DNA from: Endomicrobiia bacterium
Lineage (GTDB): Bacteria; Elusimicrobiota; Endomicrobiia; DTEH01
DNA length: 64,000 bases
Direction: 5' to 3'
Assembly: GCA_025059805.1 (NCBI GenBank)
Contig: JANXDG010000050.1
Span: 18,157 to 82,156 of the forward strand
Positions 2,301-58,446 of the stretch are shown here, one piece after another; position 1 is the first letter of the stretch, and every line of letters begins with the position of its first letter. Position numbers and translations under genes: made by a program. The notes beneath the pieces are model-generated. The model was not told where the DNA came from, ran no database searches, and saw nothing but the letters and a program-made list of their open reading frames with translations.

Positions 2301-2336
2301 ACTTTGTATTAGGCTAAGTTATTAGGTTCAATACAG

Positions 2337-3422: not shown

Positions 3423-3449
3423 TGTGTACTCTCCTACTATCTCTAAAAA

Positions 3450-5252: not shown

Positions 5253-5258
5253 AAGATC

Positions 5259-7621: not shown

Positions 7622-8635
7622 TTACGGTCTGCCGCCCATAGTAAGTGCTAAGATTGCTTTCACAGTATGCAACCTATTTTCTGCTTGGTCAAAGACCACT
7701 GACTGCGGACCATCAATTACCGCATCTTCAACTTCGTATCCGCGATCTGCAGGTAACGGATGCATATATATTGCATGTTTTTTTGCAAGTTTCATTCGTC
7801 TCTCAGTACAAACCCAGTCTTTATATTTATTAAGTAAGTCCATGCCAAGTTTTTTCTTTTCTTCTTCAGGCACACCCTGGTCAAACAGGTATTGATGACA
7901 TCCCCAAGATTTAGGATATAAAACATCAGCATCACGGAATGCTTCGTCCATATCATGAACGATTTCAAACTTAACTTTATTTTCTTCAGCAAACCTTTTC
8001 GCCCATTCTACAGTATGTGGCATTAAATAAAATTCTTTAGGATATGCTAAAACCACATCCATACCAAACCTTGGCATAAGCCAGATAAGTCCCTGTGGTA
8101 CTGAAAGTGGCCTTGCGTATGCAGGTGCGTATGTCCAGGAAATAACAAATTTTAACCCTCGTGTATTTTCTCCGAACTTCTCTCTAATTGTCATAAGGTC
8201 AGCAATTGACTGACAAGGATGGTCAACATCGCATTGTAGGTTTATCACGGGTATTGAAGCATACTCAGCTACTTCTTTAATATATTTGTTCCCTATACCA
8301 TAAAAACAGTTTCTTATAGCAATACCATGGCCATAGCGGGATAACACCTGACCTGTATCCTTTGGTGTTTCTCCATGTGAAATCTGCATTTTGTCAGGGG
8401 TGAGGTCGTGAGCGTGGCCACCTAGTTGTGTCATTGCAGCTTCAGTAGAATTTCTTGTTCTTGTTGACTGTTCAAAAAACATCATAAACAATGTCTTATC
8501 TTGCAACAACCTGTGTTCTTCACCTAAAGCAAATTTTATCTTTAGGTACTTTGATACTTCAAGTACTGTCTCAAGTTCTTCTTTTGACCAATCTTTGGTC
8601 TCTATCCAATCTTTCCCCCTTAGCATGGTTTTCAT
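7622..8635 (-). CDS. Aspartate/ornithine carbamoyltransferase superfamily protein with a non-canonical second-substrate site (YgeW-like catabolic transcarbamylase candidate)
   Basis: STRTR carbamoyl-phosphate motif, HPCQ, C-terminal HPLP and VVFDQAENRLHT. The canonical ornithine-binding DxxxSMG loop is replaced by YPKSWG. Confidence 0.6.
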   Translation of the reverse strand: MKTMLRGKDWIETKDWSKEELETVLEVSKYLKIKFALGEEHRLLQDKTLFMMFFEQSTRTRNSTEAAMTQLGGHAHDLTPDKMQISHGETPKDTGQVLSRYGHGIAIRNCFYGIGNKYIKEVAEYASIPVINLQCDVDHPCQSIADLMTIREKFGENTRGLKFVISWTYAPAYARPLSVPQGLIWLMPRFGMDVVLAYPKEFYLMPHTVEWAKRFAEENKVKFEIVHDMDEAFRDADVLYPKSWGCHQYLFDQGVPEEEKKKLGMDLLNKYKDWVCTERRMKLAKKHAIYMHPLPADRGYEVEDAVIDGPQSVVFDQAENRLHTVKAILALTMGGRP

Positions 8636-8719
8636 ACTTCATCTACCTCCTCTCAGTCTTTTATTTGTAATATACAAATTATGAATGTGGTATTCAATAA
8701 GCGGGCTATAAACCTATCT

Positions 8720-10054
8720 CTATTTTACTGGATATTCAGATGTGAAACATGCTAAACAAAAATCTTCTTTTTTTAACCCAGTCGCAGATACCATACCGTC
8801 AACAGAAAGATAATATAAAGATGTTACACCTAAAAATTTTCTAATCTCATCTACTGAATAGTTAGCAGCGATAAGTTCTTTCTTTGTCGGTGTGTCTATC
8901 CCATAGATGCAAGATGAAACTATAGGCGAACTGGTAATCCTTAAATGTACTTCTTTTGCACCGGCAAGTTTCAACATTGTGACTAATTTTTTTGAAGTTG
9001 TCCCACGTACAATAGAATCGTCAACAACTATAACTCTTCTATCATTAAGTACTGTCTTAACAGTATTATACTTAATTCTTGCAGAAAAATCTCTTATCTT
9101 CTGTCTTGGTTGGATAAACGTACGTCCTATATAATGATTTCTTATAAACCCAAACTCAAACGGTGTCCCGCTCTCATAAGCATAACCCAACGCTGCAGAA
9201 TTTGCAGAATCTGGCACTGAAATAACAATATCTGCATCTGTAGGGTTTTCTCTAAACAAATTTCTGCCTAACTGTAATCTTACATCATGGACACAACGTC
9301 CCTCTATAAAACTGTCAGGCCTTGAAAAATAAATGTATTCAAAGATACAGAAACTTTTATTATTTTTTTCTGCAAAAAGAAAACTACGCATTCTGCCATC
9401 TTTAAACTCAACTATTTCACCAGGTTCCACTTCGCGAACAAAACTTGCTGAGATTATATCCAGTGCACAAGTTTCAGAAGCAATAATAAAACTTCTTCCA
9501 AGTTTACCAATTACTAACGGACGGAAACCATACGGGTCCCTTATTGCATAAAGTACATTCGGTGTCATTAGTATTAACGAATACGCACCTTTTAGTCGTG
9601 GTAAGGTTTTTTTCAAAACATCAATAAGATTTTTTTCTTTACTATGAGATATTAAATGAAGGATCACCTCAGAATCTGTGGTAGTTTGAAATATAGCACC
9701 AACCTCTTCCAATTTTTTCCTTAGGTATTTTGCATTGACGAGGTTACCATTATGAACCAAAGCTAACAAACCTTTAGAACATTTAACAACAATAGGTTGT
9801 GCATTTTTTATATCAGAAGCACCAAACGTAGAATACCTCGTATGACCTATCGCAATCTTACCTTTTAGTTTTACAAGATCATCTTGTGAAAAAATTTCTT
9901 GTACTTCACCTTCACCGATTTTCGTATAAAACCTGTCACCATCGGAAGAAACTATCCCTGCGGATTCCTGACCACGATGTTGTAACGAATACAAACCAAG
10001 ATATGTAAGTTCAGCTGCATCAGAACAATTGTATACTCCAAATATACCACACAT
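8720..10054 (-). CDS. purF: Amidophosphoribosyltransferase
   Basis: MCGIFG N-terminal nucleophile, PRTase motif VIVVDDSIVRGTT, C-terminal Cys cluster CLACFTSEYP. Confidence 0.9.
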   Translation of the reverse strand: MCGIFGVYNCSDAAELTYLGLYSLQHRGQESAGIVSSDGDRFYTKIGEGEVQEIFSQDDLVKLKGKIAIGHTRYSTFGASDIKNAQPIVVKCSKGLLALVHNGNLVNAKYLRKKLEEVGAIFQTTTDSEVILHLISHSKEKNLIDVLKKTLPRLKGAYSLILMTPNVLYAIRDPYGFRPLVIGKLGRSFIIASETCALDIISASFVREVEPGEIVEFKDGRMRSFLFAEKNNKSFCIFEYIYFSRPDSFIEGRCVHDVRLQLGRNLFRENPTDADIVISVPDSANSAALGYAYESGTPFEFGFIRNHYIGRTFIQPRQKIRDFSARIKYNTVKTVLNDRRVIVVDDSIVRGTTSKKLVTMLKLAGAKEVHLRITSSPIVSSCIYGIDTPTKKELIAANYSVDEIRKFLGVTSLYYLSVDGMVSATGLKKEDFCLACFTSEYPVK

Positions 10055-19233: not shown

Positions 19234-20964
19234 CTATCTACGCTTCTTTAAAAATTTACAAAGTTGAGAATACGACATTGTATTAACCACATCTTTTTTC
19301 TCAAGCCAGCCACGACGTGCTACATATACACCTAAAATAAGATATTCCATTTGTGAGATATGATGTGCATCAGTTCCAATTGAAAGCATTACACCATGTT
19401 CCTTCGCATATTTTGAATTTACATCATCTAAGTCAAGCCGTTCCGGGAAAGCGTTTATTTCAAGCATAACATCATTTTTGCCAGCGTATTCTATTATTTT
19501 GGAGATATTAACTCTGTAAGGAGAACGTTTATTTAATAATCTTCCGGTAGGATGTGAAATAGAGTGAACATATTTATTATCAATAGCGCGCATAATACGT
19601 TCAGTAATTTGTTCTTCTGACTGTTTAAACCCTGTATGTATTGCTGCTATTACAAAATCTAACTCTTTCAAAACATCGTCGGGATAATCAAGTTTACCAT
19701 CAGAGGTTATATCAACTTCTTGTCCACAAAGGATTTTTACTTTACTTGTCTTATTTATATTTCTTATTTCATCAATTTTCTTATACAAATCCTTAATTGA
19801 AACACCACCTGCTACTTTCAAACTTTGTGAATGGTCACATATTATAATCCATTCATAACCTAATTTTTCTGCATACTCTACAATTTCTTTTATTGTATTT
19901 GTTCCATCTGAGTATTTTGAATGAATATGAGTATCACCTTTGATATCTTTCATCTCTAACAATTTAGGTAGTTCACCTTTTAATGCATATTCAATTTCTC
20001 CCCTATCTTCTCTTAACTCCGGCTCTATATATTGTAAGTCTAAAATTTTATAAATTTCTTCTTCAGTTCTGCCACAGATAGGTTTATCTTTTCTACCAAT
20101 CTTAAACACTCCATATTCGCTAAGAGTTAATCCTTTCTTATTTGCAATTTCTCTTAAATGAATGTTATGTTGCTTTGAACCTGTAAAATACTGCAATGCA
20201 GCACCGTATACTTCTTTTGGTACAACTCTAAGGTCTACCTGAATGTTGGAATCTGTCAATATACTTCCTTTAGTGTCACCGCTTGCCATCACTTTTTTTA
20301 CCATAGGCAATTTTGTAAATTTTTCAATTATATATTTTTCCTTCCCTGGTACAACACAACATAGAATATCTATATCACCTATGGTTTCCTTTCTTCTACG
20401 GAGAGAACCACAAGGATCTATGTTTACTACCTCTTTGTTTTTCTTTATCTCTTTTAATATCTCTTCAACAGTTTTCAACGCGTCAAACAACAGTAATCTT
20501 TGTTCCGAAACTGACAAAAGTTGTATCCCTTCAACAATATTTTGTTCAACCTTTTCCCCAAAACCGGGTAAATTCCTCAACATACCTTTCTGTGCATATT
20601 CTTTAAGAGTTTGTATATCTTTCACCCCGAGTTTTTCATAAATAAGACGAACACGTTTTGGTCCTAACCCAGGTATTCGTAACATATCAAATATTCCTTC
20701 GGGGAACTTTGATTTAAGTTCTTCTAAACGTTTAATTTTGCCTGTTTCAAAATACTCTACAATTTTTTCTGCTATACTTTTCCCAACACCAGGAATTGAT
20801 GAAAGCTTATCAAAATTTTTTGCTAAATCCTCAATAGCTTCAGGTAACGATTCTATCACCTGTGCTGCTTTTTCATAAGCACGAACTTTGAATGGATTTT
20901 CATCAGTTAAACTCAAAAGTTGTGCTATAAGATAAAACTGTTCTGCAACTTCTTTATTTCTCAT
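19234..20964 (-). CDS. polX: DNA polymerase X family protein with C-terminal PHP domain
   Basis: N-terminal HhH/Pol-beta-like region (GIGKSIAEKI, GLGPKR), nucleotidyltransferase GSLRRRKETIGDIDIL, C-terminal PHP (HIHSKYSDG). Confidence 0.8.
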   Translation of the reverse strand: MRNKEVAEQFYLIAQLLSLTDENPFKVRAYEKAAQVIESLPEAIEDLAKNFDKLSSIPGVGKSIAEKIVEYFETGKIKRLEELKSKFPEGIFDMLRIPGLGPKRVRLIYEKLGVKDIQTLKEYAQKGMLRNLPGFGEKVEQNIVEGIQLLSVSEQRLLLFDALKTVEEILKEIKKNKEVVNIDPCGSLRRRKETIGDIDILCCVVPGKEKYIIEKFTKLPMVKKVMASGDTKGSILTDSNIQVDLRVVPKEVYGAALQYFTGSKQHNIHLREIANKKGLTLSEYGVFKIGRKDKPICGRTEEEIYKILDLQYIEPELREDRGEIEYALKGELPKLLEMKDIKGDTHIHSKYSDGTNTIKEIVEYAEKLGYEWIIICDHSQSLKVAGGVSIKDLYKKIDEIRNINKTSKVKILCGQEVDITSDGKLDYPDDVLKELDFVIAAIHTGFKQSEEQITERIMRAIDNKYVHSISHPTGRLLNKRSPYRVNISKIIEYAGKNDVMLEINAFPERLDLDDVNSKYAKEHGVMLSIGTDAHHISQMEYLILGVYVARRGWLEKKDVVNTMSYSQLCKFLKKRR

Positions 20965-29080: not shown

Positions 29081-30148
29081 TCAGTAACATACTCTATTTC
29101 TTCCTAAAGATTTGGCTCTGTACAACAATTCATCTGTTTTTGATATTAATTCATCAAAGGTTTCACCAGAAAATTCCTTCACACCAAATGAACAAGTTAC
29201 AGTTATCTCTCCATTTGACGTAAAAAACTTTCTTGAACAAACTTCTTGCCTAAGCCGTTCCGCAACTATAACAGCTTGCCGCAAAGAAGTATGAGGTAAA
29301 ATTAAACAGAATTCTTCGCCACCATATCTCCCTGCAATATCCGTAATCCTAACATTATCTCGTATTACTTCACTTATAGTAGTTATAACTAAATCTCCCA
29401 CCTGGTGTCCATACTTATCATTTATTTGTTTGAAATGGTCTATATCAAACATAACCAAAGAAAGTTTTGTATTAAACTTATTAGCAAGAACAATTTCTTC
29501 CTGTAAACGCTTTATTATATAATCGTGATTATACAATTTTGTCATACTATCACTCACAACAGCATAAAACGTATAACATCTGTGTATTGCAGCTGAAGTT
29601 TGTTCAGCAATAATACTTAAAATAAGTCCCTCAAAACGTGAACGTGGAAACTTTTTGATTATTTTAAAATGTAGATTTAAGACGCCATAATTTTTATCCT
29701 GAAACTTTAGTGGTACTGCTATGAGCGCTTCTTTTCTGAGTGGTTTTACTTCAGGTGAGAAAAGTTTATAATAATATTCTGATGTTGAAACATCTCTAAC
29801 CATTACAGGAAGGCCTGTTTCAAGTGCTCGCCCAGCAACACCTTCACCAGGTTTAAGCCTTAACCCACGTACAACAGTTACACAAATATTTTTTCCAGCT
29901 TTGATTCTTAGTTCACCATTATCATAAATTAGCATTAGTGAACACCTTATTGGTCTCAACACTTCTGATACAACATCAACAATCTGTGGCAGAATTTTGT
30001 CCATTTCTACTGAAGAAGATATTTTAGAAAATTTCTTTAGAAGTTCTGCCAGCTTCGACCTATAATACGAGCTGAGTAACAAATATGAAATAATAAAAGA
30101 CAACAAACTAATAACTAATAAAAACAAAAAACAGGTTAAAAAATTCAT
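29081..30148 (-). CDS. Membrane-anchored GAF-GGDEF diguanylate cyclase
   Basis: N-terminal TM helix, GAF-like region, RYGGEEF active-site motif. Confidence 0.8.
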   Translation of the reverse strand: MNFLTCFLFLLVISLLSFIISYLLLSSYYRSKLAELLKKFSKISSSVEMDKILPQIVDVVSEVLRPIRCSLMLIYDNGELRIKAGKNICVTVVRGLRLKPGEGVAGRALETGLPVMVRDVSTSEYYYKLFSPEVKPLRKEALIAVPLKFQDKNYGVLNLHFKIIKKFPRSRFEGLILSIIAEQTSAAIHRCYTFYAVVSDSMTKLYNHDYIIKRLQEEIVLANKFNTKLSLVMFDIDHFKQINDKYGHQVGDLVITTISEVIRDNVRITDIAGRYGGEEFCLILPHTSLRQAVIVAERLRQEVCSRKFFTSNGEITVTCSFGVKEFSGETFDELISKTDELLYRAKSLGRNRVCY

Positions 30149-37795: not shown

Positions 37796-38548
37796 CTATT
37801 CGTGTTGAAATCCCGTAGTTACTCTAAGGTATATTTCTTCTAAACTTTCTGTATTTAGATTCAACTGTGATGCAATTTCTTTCCTTAGGCCACTAATTAA
37901 AATCTTTCCATTATTAATTATACAGACTCTTGTTGCTAACTGTTCAGCTAACTCTAACAGGTGCGTACATAATAATACCGTCTTACCCAATGATGATATT
38001 TGTTTAATATACTGTTTGAAAAAACTTATACATTTTGGATCAAGACCAACAAGTGGTTCATCAAGAATATAAAGTTCAGGATCACGCAAAAGTATACTCA
38101 TCAATAACAATTTTTGTTTCATACCTTTTGAATAAATTTCTATAGGCTGAGAAATAACATCTTGCAGTTCAAATTGAGAAATTAAATATTTATACTTACC
38201 CTGGTCAAATTCTTTCTTGTAAAGTGACAATATAAATTCAATGAATTCTATACCTCTAAGTTTACTATAAACATATGGCTCATCAGGTAAATATCCTATG
38301 TCGCGCTTTAACTCGGTATTATTAAGAAACATTTTTTTATTGAAAATATAAACTTCGCCACTGTCTGGTTCCAACACTCCAGATAAAATTCTTACAGTAG
38401 TGGTTTTACCTGCACCATTTGGTCCAAGTAAAACAAATATTTCACCTTTCTTTACAACAAAGCTTATATTAGATAAAACCTGTTTACCATCAAAATATTT
38501 TGATACATTTCTTACTACGACAATCTCGTTGTTATTCATACAATTCAC
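37796..38548 (-). CDS. ABC transporter ATP-binding protein
   Basis: Walker A GPNGAGKTT, ABC signature YSKGMKQKL, Walker B ILDEP. Confidence 0.85.
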   Translation of the reverse strand: MNCMNNNEIVVVRNVSKYFDGKQVLSNISFVVKKGEIFVLLGPNGAGKTTTVRILSGVLEPDSGEVYIFNKKMFLNNTELKRDIGYLPDEPYVYSKLRGIEFIEFILSLYKKEFDQGKYKYLISQFELQDVISQPIEIYSKGMKQKLLLMSILLRDPELYILDEPLVGLDPKCISFFKQYIKQISSLGKTVLLCTHLLELAEQLATRVCIINNGKILISGLRKEIASQLNLNTESLEEIYLRVTTGFQHE

Positions 38549-39135
38549 ACTACTATTGTTAACACGCCAGCAACAAAAATTGGTAACACAAAATTATCAT
38601 CCAAAGGTAATGGCAAAAATTCAATAGCCGCAGCTATAAAGGCTGCTAATAAAGCATACTCTGGTTTTACATAAAACAATCCGCACAGGAAAGCAATTAA
38701 AAAAAATGCTAAAGATCCTTCCAAACTTTTCCCTCGCGAGCCCAATTTAATCTTACCAAATGCTACTCCCACTACTGCTGCTATACTATCACCTAATGCG
38801 AGATATAACAAACTTAGCGTAACTATGTTTTTATTGTCAGAAAAAAGTAAAATTGTTAAAAACGCACCTGATAAAGTCCATATCAATGTAGATATATTAT
38901 CTTTTTCCTTTTCACGATAAGTTCCTTCAAAAAGTCTCAATAATAACTTATTAACTGAAGGATATAATAGTCTTATTGTTTCAAAAATTAAATCAATAAT
39001 TACCACAGTTGCTGATATTATAACAGAAGCAGCATATGGTAGAACATTATAAAGCACTGGATACAGTATTGTCAGTAGATGTAAACTTTTCCTTTTAAGT
39101 TCTTTTTTTAAATTTTCATTTACAAACATTCTCAT
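38545..39135 (-). CDS. CdsA / dolichol-kinase superfamily membrane protein (CTP-dependent transferase-like)
   Basis: GDSIAAVVGVAFGKIKLGSRGKSLEGS resembles the CdsA signature GDxxAxxxGxxxGKxKLxPxxSPxKTxEG. 196 aa multi-TM. Confidence 0.5.
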   Translation of the reverse strand: MRMFVNENLKKELKRKSLHLLTILYPVLYNVLPYAASVIISATVVIIDLIFETIRLLYPSVNKLLLRLFEGTYREKEKDNISTLIWTLSGAFLTILLFSDNKNIVTLSLLYLALGDSIAAVVGVAFGKIKLGSRGKSLEGSLAFFLIAFLCGLFYVKPEYALLAAFIAAAIEFLPLPLDDNFVLPIFVAGVLTIVV

Positions 39136-39857
39136 TTTTGTCTAAGCAAATTAAAGATGATTTTAAAAAGTTCAACAGTTATCTTATAACATTCTTTATA
39201 TGTAAGTATAATACTGCGAAGGAAAAAATCTTTTGTCAAATTTATATCGTTACGATTTAGAAACATCACATTAAATAACGCTATAAGGATTATACAGTTT
39301 AATATAAATATCAAAACAGTTGAAAACAGCCATCCTGAAATTTTCAAATCCTGCTGGCCTAAATATATAGCATGAATTGTCAAAATAATATGAAATGCTA
39401 TTGTGAACCCTAAAAAAAATGAAAGTAATCCAACTGAAAGTTCTAATTTGAATAAAAACCTCACTACGAACCATACTAATGTTCCTAAAATGGAATATAG
39501 TGGTACAAAATATGGGGATAGTGCGATAAACGTGTTAACTTTATCCACATTGACAGAACCTTGATTTGTACTTATCTTAACTTTCTTGATTTTACTACCA
39601 CAAAGATATGCACTTATCACATGCACCAACTCATGACTAAAAACATAAATACTTATAGGTTTATAAAAGAAGAAATGAATCAATACATATGTTATTATAC
39701 CAAAAAGAAAATATTGTACTAAATAATTACTCAACTCTATTTTGCTAAGTACAAAAATCAATGTTGATATAAGCACATAACACATTGGTAATAACAAAAC
39801 TCCATACAAAAATTTTACAACTTTATTATACAGAAGAAATTTTATCATAAACAACAA
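39132..39857 (-). CDS. Membrane protein with HExxH motif (putative zincin-like, DUF3267-like)
   Basis: FSHELVHVISAYLCG within a 241 aa polytopic protein. Confidence 0.45.
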   Translation of the reverse strand: MLFMIKFLLYNKVVKFLYGVLLLPMCYVLISTLIFVLSKIELSNYLVQYFLFGIITYVLIHFFFYKPISIYVFSHELVHVISAYLCGSKIKKVKISTNQGSVNVDKVNTFIALSPYFVPLYSILGTLVWFVVRFLFKLELSVGLLSFFLGFTIAFHIILTIHAIYLGQQDLKISGWLFSTVLIFILNCIILIALFNVMFLNRNDINLTKDFFLRSIILTYKECYKITVELFKIIFNLLRQK

Positions 39858-41619
39858 CTTTATTTCGTCCTGACGATTTCGCTACATAAAGTGCTTTATC
39901 TGCTTGTTCAATAATATCTCTGGATTTCATACCTCTAAAATAAGTTTTTACACCAATACTTATTGTGAGTTTAAGTTCTAAGGTATTTATTTTAAAAATT
40001 GTATTTTCAATCTTCTCCTTTATACGGTAAGCAATTTTTTCAGCCCAGTTTGAACCACATTCTATAAGCAATATTGCAAACTCTTCCCCACCATACCGAC
40101 ATACAATATCTGTTGTCCTTACAGATGATAGAAAAACTTGTGCTACTTGTTTTAACACAGCGTCTCCAACAAGGTGTCCATATGTATCATTTATTCGCTT
40201 GAAAAAATCTATATCTATCATAAGTAATGAAAATATGGTATTATATCGTTCACAACGCAAAATCTCATATTCTAATCGTGACATAAAATATCTTTGGATA
40301 AAAACTTTCGTAAGACTATCAGTTATAGCAAGCTCATATAATTGCGCATTATTCAATGCAACTGATATGTGCCTTACTAAGTTTTGTATTAGAGTGATAT
40401 CATAATTAGTAAATTTTGTATAATCTTCTTTGTCAGCAACAAGTATAAAACCTAAAACTTTATCACGAGATAGCATTGGTATAAACAATATTTCATCTCT
40501 AGTTATAATCTTAAAGTCTTCAATGTCACTACCTTGACAAACTAGTGTTTCCGTTAAATTTTCTAAAGTGGTATTAAACATTCTCAGAAGGTCAATAAAT
40601 GAAATGTTTTGTAAAAGATTGATATTTTCAACTGATTTTGACCAGCTTGCAAGATAAAAACTTTGTTTCTCTTCATCATAAATATAAACTACCACTTTTT
40701 TTACTTTTGCTAAACCTTTAATAAACTCAGGAGTTGAAGCTATAAGTTTTTCACTTTCAAGTATTTCAGAAATGTCTAAACTTATTCTATTCAACATATG
40801 TAAATCGTTTATACTACGTTCAAGATGTTTAGTTATTTCTCTAAAATCTTTTTCTAACTCTTTCTGTTTTACTACTTTGACTCCCATACCCACTTCAGGA
40901 CATATTGTAAGGAAATCACAATAAGGACAAAGATTATTTCTTACTGGTAAAAATTCTTTGTTTTCATATATTTCTCTCACTATATCTATAATTTTCTTTT
41001 TTGTTTCTTTTAAATTATCAGGAGTTTTACTCACAGAAATTTTTTGATTATATTGCAAGAAAATCTGTGATACAATCTTAGGAAAAAGTTTATATTTCTC
41101 CCAACAACATAATGCGTATATATCCATCTGCAAATCAGTGGCAAATTCATTCTCGGTTGGGATATACCCTCCAGTTTTATAATCAATTATTTCAACTCCG
41201 TCACCTACATCGTCAATACGGTCTATCTTACCTGTCAGGTAAAAATCTTCCAGGCCAACTCTAAAAAATTCTTCAACATATAATGGTGTAACCTTCATAT
41301 CATTATTTGCATAAAAATTTCTTAACCAAAAAGCAGCGTTGTGTTTAAACTCTGCTTCTTGTTCTTTGGATGTATAACCTTCGGAAATCCAAAAATAATC
41401 TAACATATACAACAGTTTGTCAACAGTACGTTCTTCTAAGTTCCTGATCTTAAAGAATTCTGCTAAAACTTTATGAATAGTATCTCCAACTGCTTGGTAT
41501 GGTTTTGTTTTTTTGTATAATGCGCCCACTCTGTCAATATACAAGAGTTTAAATTTGTACGGACATTGTAGGTATGACAATAACGCAGCTGCACTAAAAT
41601 ATTTAGGAAGGTTTTGCAT
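39826..41619 (-). CDS. Cas4/AddB-like Fe-S PD-(D/E)XK nuclease domain fused to GAF-GGDEF diguanylate cyclase
   Basis: N-terminal LQCPYKF, GKIDRIDD, EIIDYKTGG, then CPYCDFLTIC (C-x2-C-x5-C). Central GAF-like region. C-terminal RYGGEEF with DxLT/RxxD context. Confidence 0.65.
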   Translation of the reverse strand: MQNLPKYFSAAALLSYLQCPYKFKLLYIDRVGALYKKTKPYQAVGDTIHKVLAEFFKIRNLEERTVDKLLYMLDYFWISEGYTSKEQEAEFKHNAAFWLRNFYANNDMKVTPLYVEEFFRVGLEDFYLTGKIDRIDDVGDGVEIIDYKTGGYIPTENEFATDLQMDIYALCCWEKYKLFPKIVSQIFLQYNQKISVSKTPDNLKETKKKIIDIVREIYENKEFLPVRNNLCPYCDFLTICPEVGMGVKVVKQKELEKDFREITKHLERSINDLHMLNRISLDISEILESEKLIASTPEFIKGLAKVKKVVVYIYDEEKQSFYLASWSKSVENINLLQNISFIDLLRMFNTTLENLTETLVCQGSDIEDFKIITRDEILFIPMLSRDKVLGFILVADKEDYTKFTNYDITLIQNLVRHISVALNNAQLYELAITDSLTKVFIQRYFMSRLEYEILRCERYNTIFSLLMIDIDFFKRINDTYGHLVGDAVLKQVAQVFLSSVRTTDIVCRYGGEEFAILLIECGSNWAEKIAYRIKEKIENTIFKINTLELKLTISIGVKTYFRGMKSRDIIEQADKALYVAKSSGRNKVVVYDKISSV

Positions 41620-41628: not shown

Positions 41629-42993
41629 TTATCTTGGGATATATGCACCTTGTGGTTGTGATATCAAAAGTTTACCGTTATCTACCACAAGATTACCTTT
41701 AAATATTACTTTTAGAATTTTACCGTAAACTTCGTAACCTTCGTAAACAGTATAATCAGCAACGGTATTTAATCTTTTAACATTCACACGCCATTTTTCT
41801 TTAGGATAGTAAATTATTATATCAGCGTCACTTTTAAGAGCTAAAAAATCTCCTTTCTTAGGATATAAAGAAAAGATTTTTGCAGGTGTAGATGTTACCA
41901 TTTTTATTATATTCCTTAAATTTAACCTACGTTTTATACTTTCGGTAATGACAAAGTGAAATAACATACTTGTTCCTGGCAGACCCATTGGAATTTTGGT
42001 AAAGTTATCTCTAAACCTGAACTTCATTTTTTTACTAAATACACAATTATCAGTCGCAATAACATCTACTATACTATTCCTTACACATTTCCATAGGAAT
42101 ATTTTATCACTTAGTGATTTCACAGGTGGGCAACAAGTATAGAGGTAATTTTTCTTTATCTTAAAAACATTTCTTGTTAGATATAAATACTGTGGACAGG
42201 TCTCCGCATATATATTAAAATTTTTATTTTTTTGTTTCTTCCAGTAAATTATTTCTTCTAATGCGTCTTTGGTAGAAAGGTGAACAAAGTATATGTTACA
42301 CCCTACTTTATTATTAATACTAATCACTCTACGAACAGCTTCATATTCTACCACATTAGGTCGTGATAAAGGAAAGTATTTTACACTCAGTTTATCTTCG
42401 TTTTTTAATTTTTCAGTTAAAACATTAATCATATCACTATTCTCAGCATGTATCTCCAAAACTACATTCTTGTATTTTTTAAGTTCGTTTAAGATTATAT
42501 ATAATTTCCCATCGTCAATATACCAATTTTCTGTCTTAGGTAGAAATATCTTAAAACTTTTTATCCCATAAGAAATTAATTTTCTTATCAGTGTACTAAA
42601 GTCTTCATTAACATCAACAATTTGGGCATGGAAAGTGTAATCTACAAAACTTCCAGTTGCCTCTTTGAGGCGCCTATGGTAAGCTGCTAACAATGTTTCA
42701 CTTTTTTGTGGTATTATGTAGTCAATAACTGTGGTAACACCGTTGAGTAGTGCTGTTCTGGTACCTTTAGGAAAGTCTTCTAAAGTTTTTGCTCCGTAAG
42801 CTTCAAGGTTGAAATGCGTATGTGCATCTATCAAACCAGGGAATACGTAGCAACCATCTGCATCAATAAGCTTATGATCGTTTATAGCTATATGCTTTGC
42901 AACTTTTGTAATTTTCTGATTATTAATCTCTATGTCATATTTACCATAGTAACTTTTCGATATCAAAAAACCATTTTTTATTAACAATTTCAT
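41629..42993 (-). CDS. Cyclic amidohydrolase (D-hydantoinase/dihydropyrimidinase family)
   Basis: FPGLIDAHTHF metal-binding start, SFKIFL (carbamylated-Lys region), later His/Asp ligands. 454 aa. Confidence 0.7.
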   Translation of the reverse strand: MKLLIKNGFLISKSYYGKYDIEINNQKITKVAKHIAINDHKLIDADGCYVFPGLIDAHTHFNLEAYGAKTLEDFPKGTRTALLNGVTTVIDYIIPQKSETLLAAYHRRLKEATGSFVDYTFHAQIVDVNEDFSTLIRKLISYGIKSFKIFLPKTENWYIDDGKLYIILNELKKYKNVVLEIHAENSDMINVLTEKLKNEDKLSVKYFPLSRPNVVEYEAVRRVISINNKVGCNIYFVHLSTKDALEEIIYWKKQKNKNFNIYAETCPQYLYLTRNVFKIKKNYLYTCCPPVKSLSDKIFLWKCVRNSIVDVIATDNCVFSKKMKFRFRDNFTKIPMGLPGTSMLFHFVITESIKRRLNLRNIIKMVTSTPAKIFSLYPKKGDFLALKSDADIIIYYPKEKWRVNVKRLNTVADYTVYEGYEVYGKILKVIFKGNLVVDNGKLLISQPQGAYIPR

Positions 42994-43367
42994 TCTATTA
43001 TTTTTTGAATCACATTATGCTCACCAAATAGTACTTTGACAGGTTTGACTTTTTCTTTAGTTTCATCAATATAACAAAAAGACATTATAATGAGTTTATC
43101 ACCAACTTCACCTAATCTTGCAGCCCCACCTTGTAGTGATACCATCTTTGAACCTTTTCTAGCAGGTATTACATATGTTTCAAACCTTTCGCCATTATTT
43201 AAGTTTATCACGAGAACAACTTCATAGGGTCTTATTTTTGCAGCTGACATAAAATTTATATCAATTTTTATACTCCCGGTATAGTACAAATTCTTATCAG
43301 TAACAGTAAGTCCTTGTAGTTTTGACTTAAGATATTTGAACATCATAACGGAAGTATTTCCTTCCAC
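42990..43367 (-). CDS. panD: Aspartate 1-decarboxylase (pyruvoyl-dependent)
   Basis: KLQGLTVTD...YTGSIKID (Gly-Ser self-cleavage site), 125 aa. Confidence 0.8.
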   Translation of the reverse strand: MEGNTSVMMFKYLKSKLQGLTVTDKNLYYTGSIKIDINFMSAAKIRPYEVVLVINLNNGERFETYVIPARKGSKMVSLQGGAARLGEVGDKLIIMSFCYIDETKEKVKPVKVLFGEHNVIQKIIE

Positions 43368-43837
43368 TATTCAAGCATATAATCTTCAATTTTAAAACCT
43401 TTTTTTATGAGTTCTTCCTTCCACATCTGTTTTACAACAGGAATCTTTTGACGGGCAAGTTTCACCCACTTTGATTCAGGTGGCGAAAATAAATCTACAA
43501 CGGTTTTATACCAAATATACGCGTATTTAAGAGAACTTTCTTCAAGTTTTCTTTGTTTATTAAACTCAATAAGTTCCAATTTTATCTTATATTCCTCTTC
43601 TGAAATTTTATTTTTTGCAAATAATTTATCTAACTTAGATTTTTCAATCTGTGCTTCTTTTTCTAACGAATTCAACTTTTTCTCTGGATTATAATACCAG
43701 TCCATATATTTTTCAGCTTCATAGTAAGCTGATCTGGCTCGCAATAGCACATCTAAATATACAAATAGATATATTAAAACTATCCACATCATAATAAATA
43801 AAACTGTTTTATAGTGTTTTTTTAACAAATTTTTCAT
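43367..43837 (-). CDS. Hypothetical membrane-anchored protein
   Basis: N-terminal TM helix then charged coiled-coil-like region. No recognised motif. Confidence 0.35.
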   Translation of the reverse strand: MKNLLKKHYKTVLFIMMWIVLIYLFVYLDVLLRARSAYYEAEKYMDWYYNPEKKLNSLEKEAQIEKSKLDKLFAKNKISEEEYKIKLELIEFNKQRKLEESSLKYAYIWYKTVVDLFSPPESKWVKLARQKIPVVKQMWKEELIKKGFKIEDYMLE

Positions 43838-44295
43838 TCTTCAAACTTTTTTTTATATTCCTCAAATCTTTGTTCTGCAATTTTTGCTTCTTTAGACTTT
43901 GTACCTAACAAACTATGAATTTTTGATAAAAGAAGGTCTGGCTGTACAGGTTTTGTCAAAAAGTCTTTTACATTGGGTTCCATCTTAAACATCATTTGCA
44001 TGCTTAAATCTTTAAGTTGGCCTGAAACTACGATAATAGGTATCTTCTTATGACTTTGTTGTAAAGTTTTCACTACTTCATACCCAGATTTTTTTGGTAA
44101 TAGTGCATCAAGTATTATTAAATCAGGAATACTTTGTGCTATCTTTTCTAAAGCTTGTTGTCCATCTTTTGCTGTAATAACATTAAATCCTTGTTTAGTG
44201 AGATAATATTCAAAAAATGTTAGAACCGTATCATCATCTTCAACTATCAAAATAGTTTTTTCCTGTGGTTCTGCTAAAGACTCTACTTTATTCAT
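43834..44295 (-). CDS. Stand-alone response-regulator receiver protein (CheY-like)
   Basis: ILIVEDDD...DLIILDALLP...KIPIIVVSG receiver motifs. No output domain. Confidence 0.75.
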   Translation of the reverse strand: MNKVESLAEPQEKTILIVEDDDTVLTFFEYYLTKQGFNVITAKDGQQALEKIAQSIPDLIILDALLPKKSGYEVVKTLQQSHKKIPIIVVSGQLKDLSMQMMFKMEPNVKDFLTKPVQPDLLLSKIHSLLGTKSKEAKIAEQRFEEYKKKFEE

Positions 44296-52088: not shown

Positions 52089-53432
52089 TCATAGCAGCTC
52101 AGCTGCTAAAGCAGCAAGTTCACTTCTTTCCGACTTTGTAAAGTTAATATGTCCAAAAATTTCTTGCCCTTTGAATCTATCAACTAAATATACCAAACCG
52201 TTTGAAGAATCGTCTAAGTACGGATTGTCAATTTGGTACGGATCACCAGTTAATACTATCTTGCTACCCTCACCTGCACGTGAAACTATCGTTTTTATTT
52301 CATGTGGAGTAAGATTTTGTGCATCATCAATTATAAAAAACTGACTTGGTAAACTTCTACCACGAAGATATGTCAAGGCTTCTACCTCAATTAATCCAGA
52401 TTCAAAATAATAATCTATTGTTGATTGCAACTTTTCCGTATCAAATTTGTACATCTTACCAACTAAATAATCTAAGTTGTCATATATTGCACCCATCCAA
52501 CTTGATAGTTTCTCCTCTTTAGTTCCGGGAAGATATCCTATATCTCGTCCCATTGGTATTACTGGCCTGCTTACCAACATTCTTCTATACACTTTTTCTT
52601 CAAGAACTTTGTGCAACCCACAAGCTAAAGATAACAATGTCTTACCAGCACCAGCTACTCCAATAAGTGTTACTAAAGATATCTTATCATCTAACAATAA
52701 CTCCATTGCAAAACGTTGTTGTACATTTAATGGCTTCACACCCATAGCTATAATATCTTTTGGTGATACTAAAACAAGTTCTTTCTGAGCATTTTGACCT
52801 TTCTTAACACGTGCAAGAACGCTATGTGACTTTTCAGACCTAAATATAAAAAATTCATTATAATATATCTCTTCAGTATCCATCTTCAACTTTTCAGCAA
52901 TATCTTTTACATTTATTTTTTTCTGCGAATAAATTTTATCAATTATTTCTGAACTAACATCGTACTCTCTAAAACCAGAATATACTGTTTCAAGTTTAAC
53001 CTTTGCTTTTTCATAATCTTGCGTTGTAATACCTAAAGCTTCTGCTTTTATTCTTAAATTAATATCTTTTGTTATAAATATAACACGTTCTCCATCTTTC
53101 TTTAGTTTTAAAGCCACAGCCAAAATTCTATGGTCAGCTTTGTTTTCTACAAACTGGTGCGGCAAATCTTTATCCCAGTCAAGCTCTATTTTTATCATTC
53201 CGCCTTCTTCAAGTTTTACTCCTTCAATAATATTACCCTGTCTGCGTAACAAATCTAACTTGCGAGATACAAGCCTTGAATTTCTACCAAGTTCGTCATT
53301 ACGACGTTTCATTATATCAAGTTCTTCTATTACAGTCATAGGAATAACAACTTTATTATCTCCGAAAACGAACATTGATTCCGGGTCATGAAGTAAAACA
53401 TTAGTATCTAACACAAAAGTTTTTTGAACCAT
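52089..53432 (-). CDS. PhoH2: N-terminal PIN domain fused to PhoH-like ATPase
   Basis: FVLDTNVLLHDP...IPMTVIEELD (PIN acidic residues) and GVAGAGKTLLSLA Walker A in the C-terminal PhoH part. Confidence 0.75.
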   Translation of the reverse strand: MVQKTFVLDTNVLLHDPESMFVFGDNKVVIPMTVIEELDIMKRRNDELGRNSRLVSRKLDLLRRQGNIIEGVKLEEGGMIKIELDWDKDLPHQFVENKADHRILAVALKLKKDGERVIFITKDINLRIKAEALGITTQDYEKAKVKLETVYSGFREYDVSSEIIDKIYSQKKINVKDIAEKLKMDTEEIYYNEFFIFRSEKSHSVLARVKKGQNAQKELVLVSPKDIIAMGVKPLNVQQRFAMELLLDDKISLVTLIGVAGAGKTLLSLACGLHKVLEEKVYRRMLVSRPVIPMGRDIGYLPGTKEEKLSSWMGAIYDNLDYLVGKMYKFDTEKLQSTIDYYFESGLIEVEALTYLRGRSLPSQFFIIDDAQNLTPHEIKTIVSRAGEGSKIVLTGDPYQIDNPYLDDSSNGLVYLVDRFKGQEIFGHINFTKSERSELAALAAELL

Positions 53433-57183: not shown

Positions 57184-58446
57184 TTATAAAATTCCAGGTT
57201 CAACAAAACCATTTTCTTTAGCCTCCGGTGTTAGTTTTAATGAACCAAATTGTATTATTTTCACATCTCTTACATCATATCTTTTAGGATAAGTTAAGTA
57301 AATTTTACTATTGACAAAATCTATATCTTTTATAATTGCTAAGCATATAAATTCGTGATTGCCATCAAGTAATGCAACAATTACATTTTTAAAATCTTCT
57401 ACAACAGGATTTCTAATTTTTTTCACGTTATAAACTTTTTGTAATATTTGTTTCTCTCCATCAGTAATTTGTTTACTACTAACAACATATAAACCCTCAA
57501 AACCAGGTAGTCGTTCTAACCATTTTATACTTTTTATTTTAGTTTTGTTTTCTATCTTTTCTCCGGTAAGAAAATATGAACGGTCTGTAAAAATTTCTTG
57601 AAAAGAAAATTCAACATCTTCTAATTCTGAAAAATATTTCTTATAAACAAATTCGCGCAACTTCTTCCTTTCATCAGTTGAAGTTGGCGATGCTTTCTTT
57701 GAAACTGTTAATCTCATAATACGTTCTTGTGGAATTGATCTCACAAGATGTTCAATCTCTTTATTTCTTTCTAATAATATTACAAGATAATTTGTCCCCA
57801 GTGCACTTAGAATCTCAATTTCGCTATTTCTTAACATTCTACCACCATCACCTAAAACCCAACCTGGTGTGTCAATAATCACAACATTGGAATTCTTAAG
57901 ACCAAAATTCAAAAGTTTTGTAAACCCACAAAGATAATGTAAAAAATGTTCTGCTGGAGAATGTGAACCTACAAAGTATAATTTAGTAGGTTCTATTTCT
58001 GTCATAAAAAGTATTGGTTTGTCAAACACTGCTATACCAAGTGTTGATGGCGGTCCTATATCCGATTGTCCAGTGTCACAATCCAAAACTGATGGTTTTA
58101 CATTAAAAGAAAGCAGTTTGTTTGTAAGATAAGTTGAAAAAAACGTTTTCCCTGTATCCACTTCGCCAAAAATAATCACACTGTTGATACGTTTTGAAAT
58201 TATATACTCAACAACTCTGTCCCAATCGTCAGGTATAGTCCGCGAAGGTAATTCTGTGATTTTGCCAGTATCGTCAGTCTCAATCACAGCTTCCTGCGAG
58301 TTTACTTCTAAAGGAATACGTTTACCTTCGGGAACAAAAACTTCTTCGTTTGGTATAAACTTTCTACCAATACTTTCAACCTCGCCACTTATAAACTTTA
58401 TATTCAAAGGTCCAGAAATAAAATATACACCTTTTTTGATCAACAT
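57184..58446 (-). CDS. Clp1/Grc3-family polynucleotide 5'-kinase-like P-loop protein
   Basis: P-loop IFGEVDTGKTFFSTYL followed by LDCDTGQSD (the DxDxGQ motif typical of Clp1). 420 aa. Confidence 0.55.
   Translation of the reverse strand: MLIKKGVYFISGPLNIKFISGEVESIGRKFIPNEEVFVPEGKRIPLEVNSQEAVIETDDTGKITELPSRTIPDDWDRVVEYIISKRINSVIIFGEVDTGKTFFSTYLTNKLLSFNVKPSVLDCDTGQSDIGPPSTLGIAVFDKPILFMTEIEPTKLYFVGSHSPAEHFLHYLCGFTKLLNFGLKNSNVVIIDTPGWVLGDGGRMLRNSEIEILSALGTNYLVILLERNKEIEHLVRSIPQERIMRLTVSKKASPTSTDERKKLREFVYKKYFSELEDVEFSFQEIFTDRSYFLTGEKIENKTKIKSIKWLERLPGFEGLYVVSSKQITDGEKQILQKVYNVKKIRNPVVEDFKNVIVALLDGNHEFICLAIIKDIDFVNSKIYLTYPKRYDVRDVKIIQFGSLKLTPEAKENGFVEPGIL

Follow-up and report, generated by a model that had tools for sequence, protein, structure and literature searches.

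Does a diguanylate cyclase that carries a nuclease fold at its N-terminus take nucleic acid as its signal, or are the two domains joined in a single chain for some other reason? The question is raised by one gene of an uncultivated Endomicrobiia bacterium (phylum Elusimicrobiota), found in a stretch of 64,000 nucleotides (the window, by which we mean the whole stretch that was analysed), whose product unites in one reading frame, from the N- to the C-terminus, an Fe-S PD-(D/E)XK nuclease domain, a GAF domain and a GGDEF domain (Table 1). A preliminary description had located the open reading frame, and checking returned exactly the same coordinates, with an ATG start and 597 aa followed by a stop codon. 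The protein, which is cytoplasmic and soluble, is real and conserved: firstly, because stop codons are frequent at the GC content of the window (about 30%), which rules out a chance origin for an ORF of 597 aa, and secondly, because some 30 independent homologous clusters have the same architecture, which excludes an assembly chimera. A protein 100% identical to it is held by NCBI (P0001), under the title “MAG: diguanylate cyclase [Endomicrobia bacterium]”.

Table 1. Features of the fusion gene and of its neighbours (positions in the window; aa, residues of the encoded protein).
Feature	Position	Strand	Basis
Complete CDS, PDDEXK_1 - GAF - GGDEF fusion	39826..41619	-	ORF; Pfam; identical NCBI protein P0001
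Fe-S PD-(D/E)XK nuclease domain (Cas4/AddB/AdnA/ACE1 type), aa 8-241	40897..41598	-	PDDEXK_1, AF2, Foldseek
C19, predicted N-terminal Fe-S ligand (“iron staple” cysteine)	41563..41565	-	alignment
H49, motif-I histidine of the nuclease domain	41473..41475	-	alignment
Nuclease motif II, GKIDRIDD (aa 130-137), holding catalytic D133	41209..41232	-	D133 invariant
D146-Y-K148, nuclease motif III (D/E)xK	41176..41184	-	alignment
Q164-x3-Y168, QxxxY motif of RecB-family nucleases	41116..41130	-	nearly invariant
C231-x2-C234-x5-C240 (CPYCDFLTIC, aa 231-240), three predicted C-terminal Fe-S ligands	40900..40929	-	alignment
Hinge EVGMGVKVVK, aa 242-251	40867..40896	-	sole low-confidence segment
Long helix into GAF, aa 252-288	40756..40866	-	DSSP helix 252-285, full-length model
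GAF domain, aa 289-424	40348..40755	-	GAF_3; model secondary structure
GGDEF diguanylate cyclase domain, aa 431-587	39859..40329	-	PF00990, TIGR00254
R501-T-T-D504, RxxD allosteric inhibitory site (I-site)	40108..40119	-	five residues N-terminal to GGEEF
G510-G-E-E-F514, catalytic A-site	40078..40092	-	27/27 GGDEF-bearing members; coordinates verified
Downstream partner 1, 241-aa multi-pass membrane protein, weakly M50-like	39132..39857	-	start overlaps 3′ end of fusion gene
Downstream partner 2, 196-aa SEC59/DGK1/VTE5-family (polyprenol/dolichol kinase-like) membrane protein	38545..39135	-	database names
Upstream 156-aa protein without family match, beside the response regulator	43367..43837	-	homologs in four loci
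Upstream receiver protein of 153 aa, a stand-alone response regulator	43834..44295	-	Response_reg E 1.5e-24

The N-terminal part matches the Pfam model PDDEXK_1 (PF12705) from aa 8 to 241, over model positions 2–247 of 247 (E 1.6e-31), with 110.6 bits against a curated cut-off of 22 bits. The motifs quoted in the preliminary description were all located and their coordinates verified, that is, LQCPYKF, which holds C19, GKIDRIDD, EIIDYKTGG (aa 143–151), CPYCDFLTIC and, in the cyclase, RYGGEEF (aa 508–514). Residues were counted in the 29 family members of alignment A4, 27 of them GGDEF-bearing. C231, C234 and C240 are invariant in the 29, as is C19, which is equally so in a 57-sequence alignment taking in stand-alone nucleases; H49 is invariant in alignments A1 and A2 and present in 28/29 sequences in A4 (P0218 has Q); K148 is invariant, and D146 is found in 27/29 (Y in P0224, L in P0284). 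The AF2 model of the domain reaches a pLDDT of 94.2 and a pTM of 0.88, and its best Foldseek matches are ACE1 (9iac, E 5e-10, TMq 0.70) and AdnA (7sjr, TMq 0.74), followed by Dna2, Cas4 and AddB, the best 50 PDB matches being RecB/Cas4-type nucleases throughout. Pfam and the predicted structure agree on a PD-(D/E)XK nuclease and on no other fold, and show a complete domain of the Cas4/AddB/AdnA/ACE1 type, with four cysteines and the series H...D...DxK...QxxxY, for which an Fe-S cluster and nuclease activity are predicted.

The designation “Cas4/AddB-type” holds as to the type of nuclease, and is refined in that the nearest solved relatives are ACE1 and the AdnA module, not CRISPR Cas4. Cas4 proper (TIGR00372) is rejected at 36.5 bits against an equivalog cut-off of 65, in a match that covers the C-terminal half only, and so are the AddAB/AdnAB/RecBCD helicase-nucleases, as Pfam and NCBIfam give no helicase domain and the AddB model yields 23 bits against a cut-off of 486.

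ACE1, an ssDNA endonuclease, has a threading channel and an Fe4S4 cluster, present in the crystals (PMC12094033). It is the best structural match and the sole PDB-sequence match of the profile of the fused-family N-domain, with which it shares the D...DxK triad residue by residue, the 1+3 cysteine ligands of an Fe4S4 cluster (CxxCx5C) and a size of ~270 aa. D133 aligns with the Asp at chain position 149 of CtACE1 (D148 in the paper) and D146 with D162, these two being the Asp pair of the catalytically dead double mutant (PMC12094033). However, identity with the N-domain is only 16–17%, and ACE1 is a stand-alone protein without signalling domains, the partner of long-A Argonaute in cyanobacteria, whereas there is no Argonaute at the locus studied here. 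The modules of AdnA/AdnB and AddB (6PPR, 7SJR, 3U4Q) give the highest TM-score, that of AdnA (0.71–0.74), as well as profile matches at 1e-11 over the whole domain, and have the Fe-S “iron staple” and the RecB-type active site, but they are C-terminal in proteins of at least ~1000 aa with UvrD-like motors, engaged in double-strand-break resection, whereas in the fusion protein the nuclease is at the N-terminus and no helicase domain accompanies it. The closest sequence relatives outside the fusion family are stand-alone “RecB family exonuclease” or PD-(D/E)XK proteins of ~240–290 aa from Patescibacteria, Chloroflexota, Omnitrophota and others, with 33–38% identity over the full domain and the same invariant residues, although without GAF or GGDEF; we found no characterised member among them.

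At the other end of the protein, PF00990 is matched over positions 1–161 of 161 (E 2.6e-45, 154.5 bits against a cut-off of 23.8) and TIGR00254 with 175.8 bits against 37.4, and the domain aligns end to end with DosC, PleD and WspR. The active site, which the preliminary description had considered intact, is so in every GGDEF-bearing member, and the RxxD I-site is kept in 26/27, the R501-T-T-D504 of the target aligning with the RKSD of 6zxm (where the related 6zxb and 6zxc have AKSA). D469/D471, K474, N477, D486, R508, K581 and R585 are present and conserved, and we take them, from PleD, to be metal and GTP contacts; the residues for GTP, Mg and the I-site are all there. At the level of sequence this shows a diguanylate cyclase domain in which active site and I-site are both intact, and whose activity is predicted. 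Together with the GAF, the C-terminal 330 aa align to positions 6–338 of 340 of DgcA (NF041606, E 4e-62), a GAF-GGDEF cyclase like 6zxm, 6d9m and 8c05; GGEEF, I-site and GAF-to-GGDEF helix are common to them, and the GGDEF domain lies near several solved cyclase domains, although the known proteins have no nuclease domain and the GAF of the target is weakly conserved. A DgcA ortholog in the strict sense is rejected, at 210.1 bits against the NF041606 equivalog cut-off of 370.

The GAF_3 match is marginal (28.4 bits against a cut-off of 27), with GAF_2 and GAF below their Pfam cut-offs; several homologs give clear GAF scores (in P0224, GAF_2 reaches 61.9 bits), and the region is modelled as an alpha/beta, helix-sheet-helix arrangement with a pLDDT of 80–92. 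HMM scans, family-wide motif conservation, and structure prediction with fold search agree, in short, on the fusion of a Cas4/AddB-type Fe-S nuclease domain to GAF-GGDEF that had been proposed. Between nuclease and GAF, aa 245–250 of the hinge fall below a pLDDT of 50 in both AF2 models, and the pTM of the full-length model is 0.49; the hinge sequence is kept among closer relatives (consensus ICPxMGMGxKxVK). The linker that follows, with a mean pairwise identity of 42%, forms a helix that may act in dimerisation or signalling, and a second continuous helix (aa 405–432, full-length model) joins GAF to GGDEF. The flexibility and low confidence of the hinge, and a model in which no allosteric path is evident, count against a DNA input.

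The nuclease-GAF-GGDEF architecture is found in ~30 protein clusters, at identities down to 31%; the named members are nearly all from Elusimicrobiota and are annotated solely as “diguanylate cyclase”. The family is rare, patchy and uncharacterised, a full-text literature search found no description of a nuclease-GGDEF fusion, and the earlier remark that this was not a described architecture agrees with that search; the best reading is an undescribed variant of the sensor-linked diguanylate cyclases. Among the fused N-domains, 27/32 fall in one clade and the remaining ones have fused nearest neighbours. Mean pairwise identity is 51% in the nuclease domain, 55% in GGDEF and 29% in GAF, the least conserved part of the protein, so that the nuclease domain is about as conserved as GGDEF and far above GAF, which is evidence of selection.

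The catalytic triad is intact in the target and in 25/27 GGDEF-bearing members, and because of this the idea, also raised in the preliminary description, that a degenerate nuclease fold had been taken over for sensing is unsupported for the target. It may apply to two divergent members (P0224, P0284), which have lost the Asp of motif III and keep the four cysteines, D133, K148 and the GGDEF domain. It is very unlikely, in our estimation, that the fold is a structural relic, a ligand-free domain for dimerisation or scaffolding in what would be an ordinary GAF-regulated diguanylate cyclase: the substitution of the catalytic Asp in those two members would suit such a relic, and GAF-GGDEF cyclases without a nuclease are common (there is another in the window itself, at 29081–30148), but purifying selection on the active-site and Fe-S residues is strong across the family, and the N-domain is more conserved than the GAF.

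The inputs known for diguanylate cyclases are light, oxygen, small molecules, phosphorylation and membrane signals, and we know of none that reads DNA directly. The reading that we prefer, drawn from sequence, models and analogy and held with a confidence somewhat short of even, is that the fusion protein could be a diguanylate cyclase with nucleic acid (ssDNA, DNA ends) as its input. A more specific and more doubtful proposal is that it would be the first such cyclase to read nucleic acid directly, with an Fe-S, RecB/Cas4-type nuclease module that threads ssDNA or DNA ends and gates c-di-GMP synthesis, and with cleavage as the reset. In AdnA and ACE1, ssDNA threads a narrow channel to a buried active site, and the Fe-S “staple” aids the handling of DNA ends. 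The steps could be the following: (i) free ssDNA or unwound DNA ends would arise when DNA is damaged or taken up, when replication stalls, or when foreign DNA invades; (ii) the DNA filling the nuclease domain would alter the arrangement of a GAF-mediated dimer; (iii) with this shift the GGDEF domains of the dimer would gain or lose their catalytic pairing, changing the level of c-di-GMP; (iv) once the bound strand is cut, the sensor would return to its starting state; (v) and finally, the RxxD I-site would provide product feedback. The likely output would be the usual c-di-GMP repertoire of changes in envelope, polysaccharide and motility.

A sensor role is favoured by the N-terminal position of the nuclease domain, the usual site of the sensor domains of diguanylate cyclases, and by its modularity, as it is also found directly on GGDEF without GAF (P0226) and on GAF-GAF followed by another tail, without GGDEF (P0231, P0239). 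The retention of the four cysteines and GGDEF in the two members that lack the motif-III Asp suggests that binding may matter more than cleavage, and the helices 252–285 and 405–432, linkers of the signalling type, are likewise counted for a DNA input.

Near-universal retention of the triad could equally mean a working nuclease, not a sensor. The protein would then be a bifunctional enzyme, whose nuclease is regulated by GAF-GGDEF (for instance by c-di-GMP bound to the I-site, by the level of GTP or by a ligand of the GAF) or merely tethered to it for co-expression or co-localisation. Besides the triad, this would fit the flexible hinge, suggestive of a loose coupling of the modules, the conserved I-site, through which c-di-GMP binding is possible, and the nature of the nearest unfused relatives, genuine enzymes that either stand alone as nucleases or form the nuclease module of a UvrD/PcrA-type helicase. 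However, the invariant GGEEF and GTP/Mg residues mark the C-terminus as a synthase, more than a mere receptor, the two members with a substituted catalytic Asp retain the fusion, the joining of the nuclease module to other C-terminal tails is a pattern typical of input domains, and a variable N-terminal domain followed by a C-terminal GGDEF is the order of sensor-output proteins. We regard the bifunctional enzyme as rather unlikely.

The signal might also come from the [4Fe-4S] cluster, whose state would follow oxygen, nitric oxide, redox potential or iron supply, and not from DNA, an explanation that we judge unlikely. Endomicrobia are anaerobes, and in such an organism a lost or oxidised cluster would let the “iron staple” region by the hinge unfold and so change the cyclase; no residues of the N-domain are kept more strictly than the four cysteines, which do not vary even in members without D146 or in variants without GGDEF, and the last of them, C240, immediately precedes the hinge to the GAF module. 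But the stand-alone nucleases keep the four cysteines equally, so their conservation does not separate DNA sensing from cluster sensing; a cluster sensor gives no reason for the near-invariance of H49, D133, D146, K148, Q164 and Y168 down to 31% identity, and, to our knowledge, no Fe-S nuclease fold acts as a redox sensor.

The nearest concept to a cyclase gated by DNA is that of DisA, where a DNA-binding domain is coupled to c-di-AMP synthesis, and of cGAS, where DNA binding is coupled to the synthesis of cGAMP. The likeness is of concept only, a nucleic-acid-binding module and a cyclic-dinucleotide synthase in one polypeptide, as the folds (DAC and helix-hairpin-helix in DisA, Mab21 nucleotidyltransferase in cGAS) are unrelated to that of the fusion protein, in which Pfam and NCBIfam scans find neither DAC (DisA_N) nor helix-hairpin-helix domains, and as both make other messengers and have neither a nuclease active site nor an Fe-S cluster. 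If the nuclease is the input, the sensing of DNA state by cyclic-dinucleotide synthases would extend to c-di-GMP, this would be the first Cas4/AddB-type Fe-S nuclease fold in signal transduction, and Elusimicrobiota would possess their own c-di-GMP counterpart of DisA and cGAS, tying DNA damage, uptake or invasion to decisions on envelope and lifestyle. Were either main rival true, a cluster-state sensor or a c-di-GMP-regulated nuclease, the finding would likewise be new to the biology of both domain families. At 597 aa in a single soluble chain, the protein is, moreover, compact enough to serve as a test case, and it would give functional access to c-di-GMP signalling in a phylum of which very few members have been cultured.

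The surroundings of the gene bear on a further possibility, that of an anti-phage or anti-plasmid defence in which the nuclease would detect or process foreign DNA and c-di-GMP would switch on an effector, on the model of CBASS, type III CRISPR or Argonaute-ACE1. The role of ACE1, the best solved relative, as an accessory nuclease of Argonaute in defence, and the rare and patchy occurrence of the family, would agree with it; in PADLOC-DB v2 the target obtains domain-level matches to Cas4 and DruK models, which are generic nuclease-domain matches, and its neighbours nothing or generic REC/ABC. Against it, there are no CRISPR-like repeats at 30–52 kb of the window, and the neighbours of the gene, both here and at nine homolog loci, include no cas, Argonaute, CBASS or other defence partners; composition does not change along the region, and, unlike mobile defence islands, the gene has a conserved place on the chromosome among housekeeping genes (PanD, dihydropyrimidinase-like, ABC transporter, SEC59-like kinase, at 50–71% identity). 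We consider defence highly improbable.

Near the fusion gene there is no conserved gene for DNA repair, competence or defence; the neighbours that are conserved belong to the membrane and the envelope, an observation that counts against a DNA input. The first downstream partner, with weak Peptidase_M50/M50B matches and an invariant H75-E76-x2-H79 (HExxH), adjoins the fusion gene in six loci (L001, L003, L004, L005, L008, L009), and the second is adjacent in the same six, its identical protein being named “SEC59/DGK1/VTE5 family protein” in NCBI and its homologs “dolichol kinase” in JGI. Within Elusimicrobiota this SEC59-like neighbour is much commoner than the fusion itself, and the synteny may therefore reflect a gene order handed down without a functional link. 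On the upstream side, the response regulator is also found in L001, L003 and L004, and the 156-aa protein beside it has homologs of 54–70% identity in these three loci and in L008.

The open reading frame in which the preliminary description had noticed a Cas4/AddB-type Fe-S nuclease domain fused to a GAF-GGDEF diguanylate cyclase begins 9 nt downstream of the stop codon that ends an amidohydrolase gene, in AT-rich DNA (about 28–36% GC, uniform over the region) whose minus strand carries nearly all the genes of the window. The peptides quoted there (LQCPYKF, GKIDRIDD, EIIDYKTGG, CPYCDFLTIC, and RYGGEEF) are all present in the protein, the nucleotide coordinates having been checked by translation, and the Pfam scan proposed at the same time assigns PDDEXK_1, GAF_3, and GGDEF to it (see table). 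In NCBIfam, the protein is above the cut-off of the generic GGDEF domain model, and the last 330 aa match the equivalog for DgcA, a GAF-GGDEF cyclase, over its full length but with 210 bits against a cut-off of 370, so that the protein is not a DgcA ortholog; the matches to the Cas4 and AddB equivalogs are weak and below cut-off, and the protein is neither a CRISPR Cas4 nor one of the AddB/AdnA helicase-nucleases. Reading frame, motifs, Pfam, and NCBIfam together confirm the fusion, whose architecture is certain and unusual. An assembly chimera as its source was rejected, because many independent assemblies carry the same architecture; the NCBI protein 100% identical to it (P0001) is named "MAG: diguanylate cyclase [Endomicrobia bacterium]", which places the window in an Endomicrobia/Elusimicrobiota genome.

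Coordinates of the fusion gene, its domains and its neighbours (nucleotide positions in the window; aa, residues of the fusion protein)
Feature	Position	Strand	Model span	Remarks
Receiver-domain protein, stand-alone, 153 aa	43834-44295	-		overlaps 156-aa gene
156-aa conserved protein	43367-43837	-		no family match (Pfam, NCBIfam)
PanD (aspartate 1-decarboxylase) and dihydropyrimidinase/hydantoinase-like amidohydrolase	41629-43367	-		between response regulator and fusion gene
Fusion ORF	39826-41619	-		597 aa, ATG start
PDDEXK_1 (Pfam)	aa 8-241		2-247 of 247	E 1.6e-31, 110.6 bits, cut-off 22
GAF_3 (Pfam)	aa 289-424		2-129 of 129	28.4 bits, cut-off 27
GGDEF (Pfam)	aa 431-587		1-161 of 161	E 2.6e-45
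241-aa membrane protein	39132-39857	-		invariant HExxH, weakly M50-like
196-aa membrane protein	38545-39135	-		SEC59/DGK1/VTE5-type polyprenol/dolichol kinase-like

The N-terminal domain is, as far as sequence and predicted structure indicate, a genuine and apparently intact Fe-S nuclease domain of the RecB/Cas4 type. The model of aa 1–250, predicted from a 57-sequence alignment, has a mean pLDDT of 94.2 and a pTM of 0.88, and its Foldseek matches in the PDB were solely RecB/Cas4-class nucleases, namely ACE1 (9iac, E 5e-10, TMq 0.70), a Cas4-family enzyme associated with Argonaute, and the nuclease module of AdnA (7sjr, TMq 0.74), followed by Dna2, type I-C Cas4, AddB, SSO0001 Cas4, RecE, Exo5, and RecB; no different fold emerged for the modelled N-terminus. 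Sequence profiles lead to the same proteins in the PDB (AdnAB nuclease domain, 1e-11; ACE1, 1e-10), profiles alone having succeeded, as the domain used as a single sequence found no match among PDB sequences. The profile alignment with CtACE1 pairs D133 with chain residue D149 and D146 with D163, which a constant one-residue offset converts into D148 and D162, the two positions changed in the catalytically dead mutant that has been published (PMC12094033). ACE1 is an ssDNA endonuclease that acts through a narrow channel and binds an Fe4S4 cluster by 1+3 cysteines (PMC12094033). Ten residues (C19, H49, D133, D136, D146, Y147, K148, C231, C234, and C240) do not vary among 20 full-length homologs as distant as 31% identity, and Q164 and Y168 hardly do; in the stand-alone nuclease relatives, too, this core set is invariant or almost invariant. 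By each testable criterion the domain belongs to the Fe-S PD-(D/E)XK (PDDEXK_1) family, and the degenerate nuclease fold that had been offered as one option is not borne out for this protein, because its catalytic triad is intact. That the fold would serve as an inert scaffold is very improbable, in view of the strong purifying selection on active-site and Fe-S residues.

The cyclase half, judged from its alignments, is canonical, a member of the GGDEF family by each testable criterion. The GGEEF motif (aa 510–514) is found in 27 of the 27 GGDEF-bearing family members and the RxxD I-site (R501–D504) in 26, and the positions DxD, K, N, D, K, and R, which we take to be Mg/GTP contacts as in PleD-type cyclases, are conserved with single-member conservative changes only (N at D486 in P0005; K at R585 in four members); the intact active site reported at the outset is borne out. 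The domain aligns end to end with those of DosC, PleD, and WspR and with the GGDEF/receiver-domain protein 6zxm, to whose RKSD the RxxD corresponds (AKSA there in the related entries 6zxb and 6zxc). A second diguanylate cyclase, of 355 aa, is encoded in the window (29081–30148, minus strand), with GAF and GGDEF and without a nuclease domain; its recent duplication was rejected, as it is 34% identical to aa 368–588 of the fusion (GAF end and GGDEF).

The full-length model (pLDDT 87.1, pTM 0.49), in which the relative orientation of the domains is unreliable, predicts three well-folded domains and a single low-confidence hinge, at aa 245–250, directly past the last cysteine. From there a predicted 34-residue helix (aa 252–285) runs into the GAF domain, and a continuous helix (aa 405–432) joins GAF to GGDEF, presumably the layout associated with dimeric GAF-GGDEF cyclases. 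The invariant cysteines and their place next to the hinge would suit a protein in which the state of the Fe-S cluster (O2, NO, redox, iron) is the signal to the cyclase, which we consider rather unlikely, as it leaves the conserved nuclease active site unexplained. The intact triad would equally suit, together with the hinge, a working nuclease regulated by the cyclase or merely tethered to it; this too seems doubtful, given that GGEEF is intact and that the domain order and the swapping of partners resemble a sensor-output arrangement.

The reading which we propose, tentatively and with somewhat less than even confidence, is by analogy that of a diguanylate cyclase with a nucleic-acid input, for which the steps would be: (i) the Fe-S nuclease domain would take up an ssDNA or unwound DNA end by threading, as in AdnA and ACE1; (ii) its occupancy would alter the GAF-mediated dimer, and with it the pairing of the two GGDEF domains; (iii) cleavage of the bound DNA would reset the sensor; (iv) and finally, the I-site would provide product inhibition. 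The main weaknesses of this nucleic-acid input are the predicted flexible hinge, which offers no obvious allosteric path, and the lack of DNA-metabolism neighbours. The nearest functional concepts are DisA and cGAS, in which the state of DNA sets cyclic-dinucleotide synthesis, although their folds and messengers differ. The protein would be a sensor-linked diguanylate cyclase whose input domain is without precedent, and the proposed function is directly approachable with a single soluble protein and point mutants that suggest themselves.

The conservation and the modularity of the family bear on this input role. The mean pairwise identity is 51% in the nuclease domain, 42% in the linker, 29% in GAF, and 55% in GGDEF, and the N-terminal domain, on these alignments, is constrained as strongly as the catalytic output domain. 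An Elusimicrobiota protein of 435 aa (P0226) joins the nuclease domain to GGDEF without GAF, and two longer proteins (P0231, 716 aa; P0239, 704 aa) consist of nuclease, GAF, a second GAF-like region, and a tail of ~130 aa with no GGDEF match, which might be a degenerate cyclase-like domain; for P0231, homology is confirmed as far as the first GAF only. That the nuclease domain occurs with varying partners is what one would expect of an input module. The motif-III Asp is replaced in P0224 (IIYYK) and P0284 (IVLYK), and P0218 carries H49Q. In each of the three, D133, K148, all four Cys, and the GGDEF domain are intact, which suggests that some lineages can do without cleavage but not without the fold and the cluster ligands.

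The nuclease domain's closest relatives also include tandem PDDEXK_1 proteins with 2–5 full-length Fe-S copies, encoded outside the window (P0210, P0211, P0212, P0215, P0216, P0217, P0222, and P0261); P0210 has five copies in 1297 aa and no further Pfam domain. To our knowledge, no function has been described for such arrays of Cas4-type nuclease domains.

The database search that had been suggested, run as a word-indexed search of 5.8 billion proteins, returned the same Pfam architecture in 21 full-length clusters, at 75% to 31% identity, the named ones being Endomicrobia or Elusimicrobiota plus one "Candidatus Dependentiae". An exhaustive phmmer search with the nuclease domain alone against 1.84 billion 50%-identity representatives gave 4693 matches (E <= 1e-3), and Pfam scans of the longer N-terminal ones confirmed at least 12 fused representatives, of which P0007, P0019, and P0020 were already among the word-search clusters and P0213, P0214, P0218, P0219, P0220, P0224, P0227, P0237, and P0284 came from the scans; the named extra ones (two Elusimicrobia/Elusimicrobiota, one merely "bacterium") are all annotated just "diguanylate cyclase". 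In a contig set with one genome per species (185,579 species), an in-frame GAF-GGDEF follows the nuclease match in 3 of the best 80 loci, in an Elusimicrobia MAG (L008), an Ignavibacteria-labelled MAG (L009), and an unclassified bacterium (L010); the other 77, from Patescibacteria, Chloroflexota, Omnitrophota, and others, have none downstream, and the protein searches show that such non-fused relatives either stand alone as nucleases or form the C-terminal module of a UvrD/PcrA-type helicase. The L009 contig (JBGFRZ010000019.1, 6001–9055) carries the fusion gene with the HExxH/SEC59-like cassette of the Elusimicrobiota loci, and may be a mis-binned Elusimicrobiota contig or a transferred three-gene block.

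In a crude neighbour-joining tree of 251 nuclease domains, 27 of the 32 fused domains form one clade, and the remaining five, of unresolved placement, have fused nearest neighbours; strict monophyly is not supported, and the tree fits a single fusion event or very few. From the counts, the taxonomy, and the divergence, the family appears rare, lineage-restricted, and old enough to reach about 30% identity, rather than common and characterised. The preliminary description did not recognise the architecture as a described one, and the searchable literature, in which few subscription journals are covered, was likewise silent on any fusion of a PD-(D/E)XK or Cas4-type domain with GGDEF; the one paper in which "PDDEXK" and "GGDEF" occur together in connection with defence (PMC10910872) treats unrelated loci. 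The combination is probably listed without comment in InterPro architecture tables.

In Endomicrobiia, the gene lies within a conserved, tightly packed string: upstream, in order, the response regulator, the 156-aa protein, PanD, and the amidohydrolase; downstream, immediately behind it, the HExxH membrane protein and the SEC59-like kinase, and further on an ABC ATPase, an ABC_tran_2 permease, and a polysaccharide deacetylase. Nothing in this neighbourhood suggests defence or repair, and the idea that the protein is a defence module, for which no defence context appears, is extremely improbable. PADLOC returned generic nuclease-domain hits and no system, and no CRISPR-like repeats were found between 30 and 52 kb of the window. 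A CRISPR Cas4 or defence island was therefore rejected on the sub-threshold Cas4 score, the lack of repeats and partner genes, and the location in conserved housekeeping synteny. Also rejected was a nearby output by way of a c-di-GMP riboswitch or another structured RNA, there being no riboswitches in the window and five tRNAs as its sole structured RNAs. Elsewhere in the window, on the minus strand, are a PolX-type polymerase (pol beta domains and PHP; 19234–20964), a PIN-PhoH fusion (52089–53432), and a Clp1-type P-loop protein (57184–58446), with no link to the nuclease-GGDEF fusion seen for any of them.

The receiver protein and the 156-aa protein recur as a pair upstream of the fusion gene in three homolog loci (L001, L003, L004) and could form one signalling unit with it. 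Since L004 lacks PanD and the amidohydrolase at that position, these two probably make up an unrelated beta-alanine/pyrimidine pair; the amidohydrolase scores 368.8 bits with TIGR02033, slightly short of the cut-off (393). The boundaries of both membrane-protein genes directly 3′ of the fusion overlap, the 241-aa ORF, with its annotated TTG start, by 32 nt with the fusion gene (14–20 nt in homologs). The HExxH and SEC59-like genes follow the fusion in 6 of 9 homolog loci, the trio being kept down to 34% identity (L004, L005, L009) and missing from the three most divergent loci. Profile searches of both membrane proteins against the PDB gave noise only, and neither they nor the 156-aa protein had anything significant in Pfam or NCBIfam. 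The SEC59-like gene is far commoner than the fusion in Elusimicrobiota (413 hits), so the adjacency may be inherited gene order; a functional link with this cassette is not claimed, and an envelope-related output is only a hint.

Three homologs have motility or chemotaxis genes nearby: in L004 a sigma factor, FlbD, and MotAB; in L006 CheC/CheX; and in L007 FapA with SpoIIE phosphatases. In this last locus (1039–9072 on the contig of P0020), whose homolog is the most divergent and looks GAF-less, the context is unlike that of Endomicrobiia, and the fusion gene, overlapped by FapA, stands at the end of a partner-switching-like cluster with PocR-GAF-HATPase_c_2 and two SpoIIE phosphatases.
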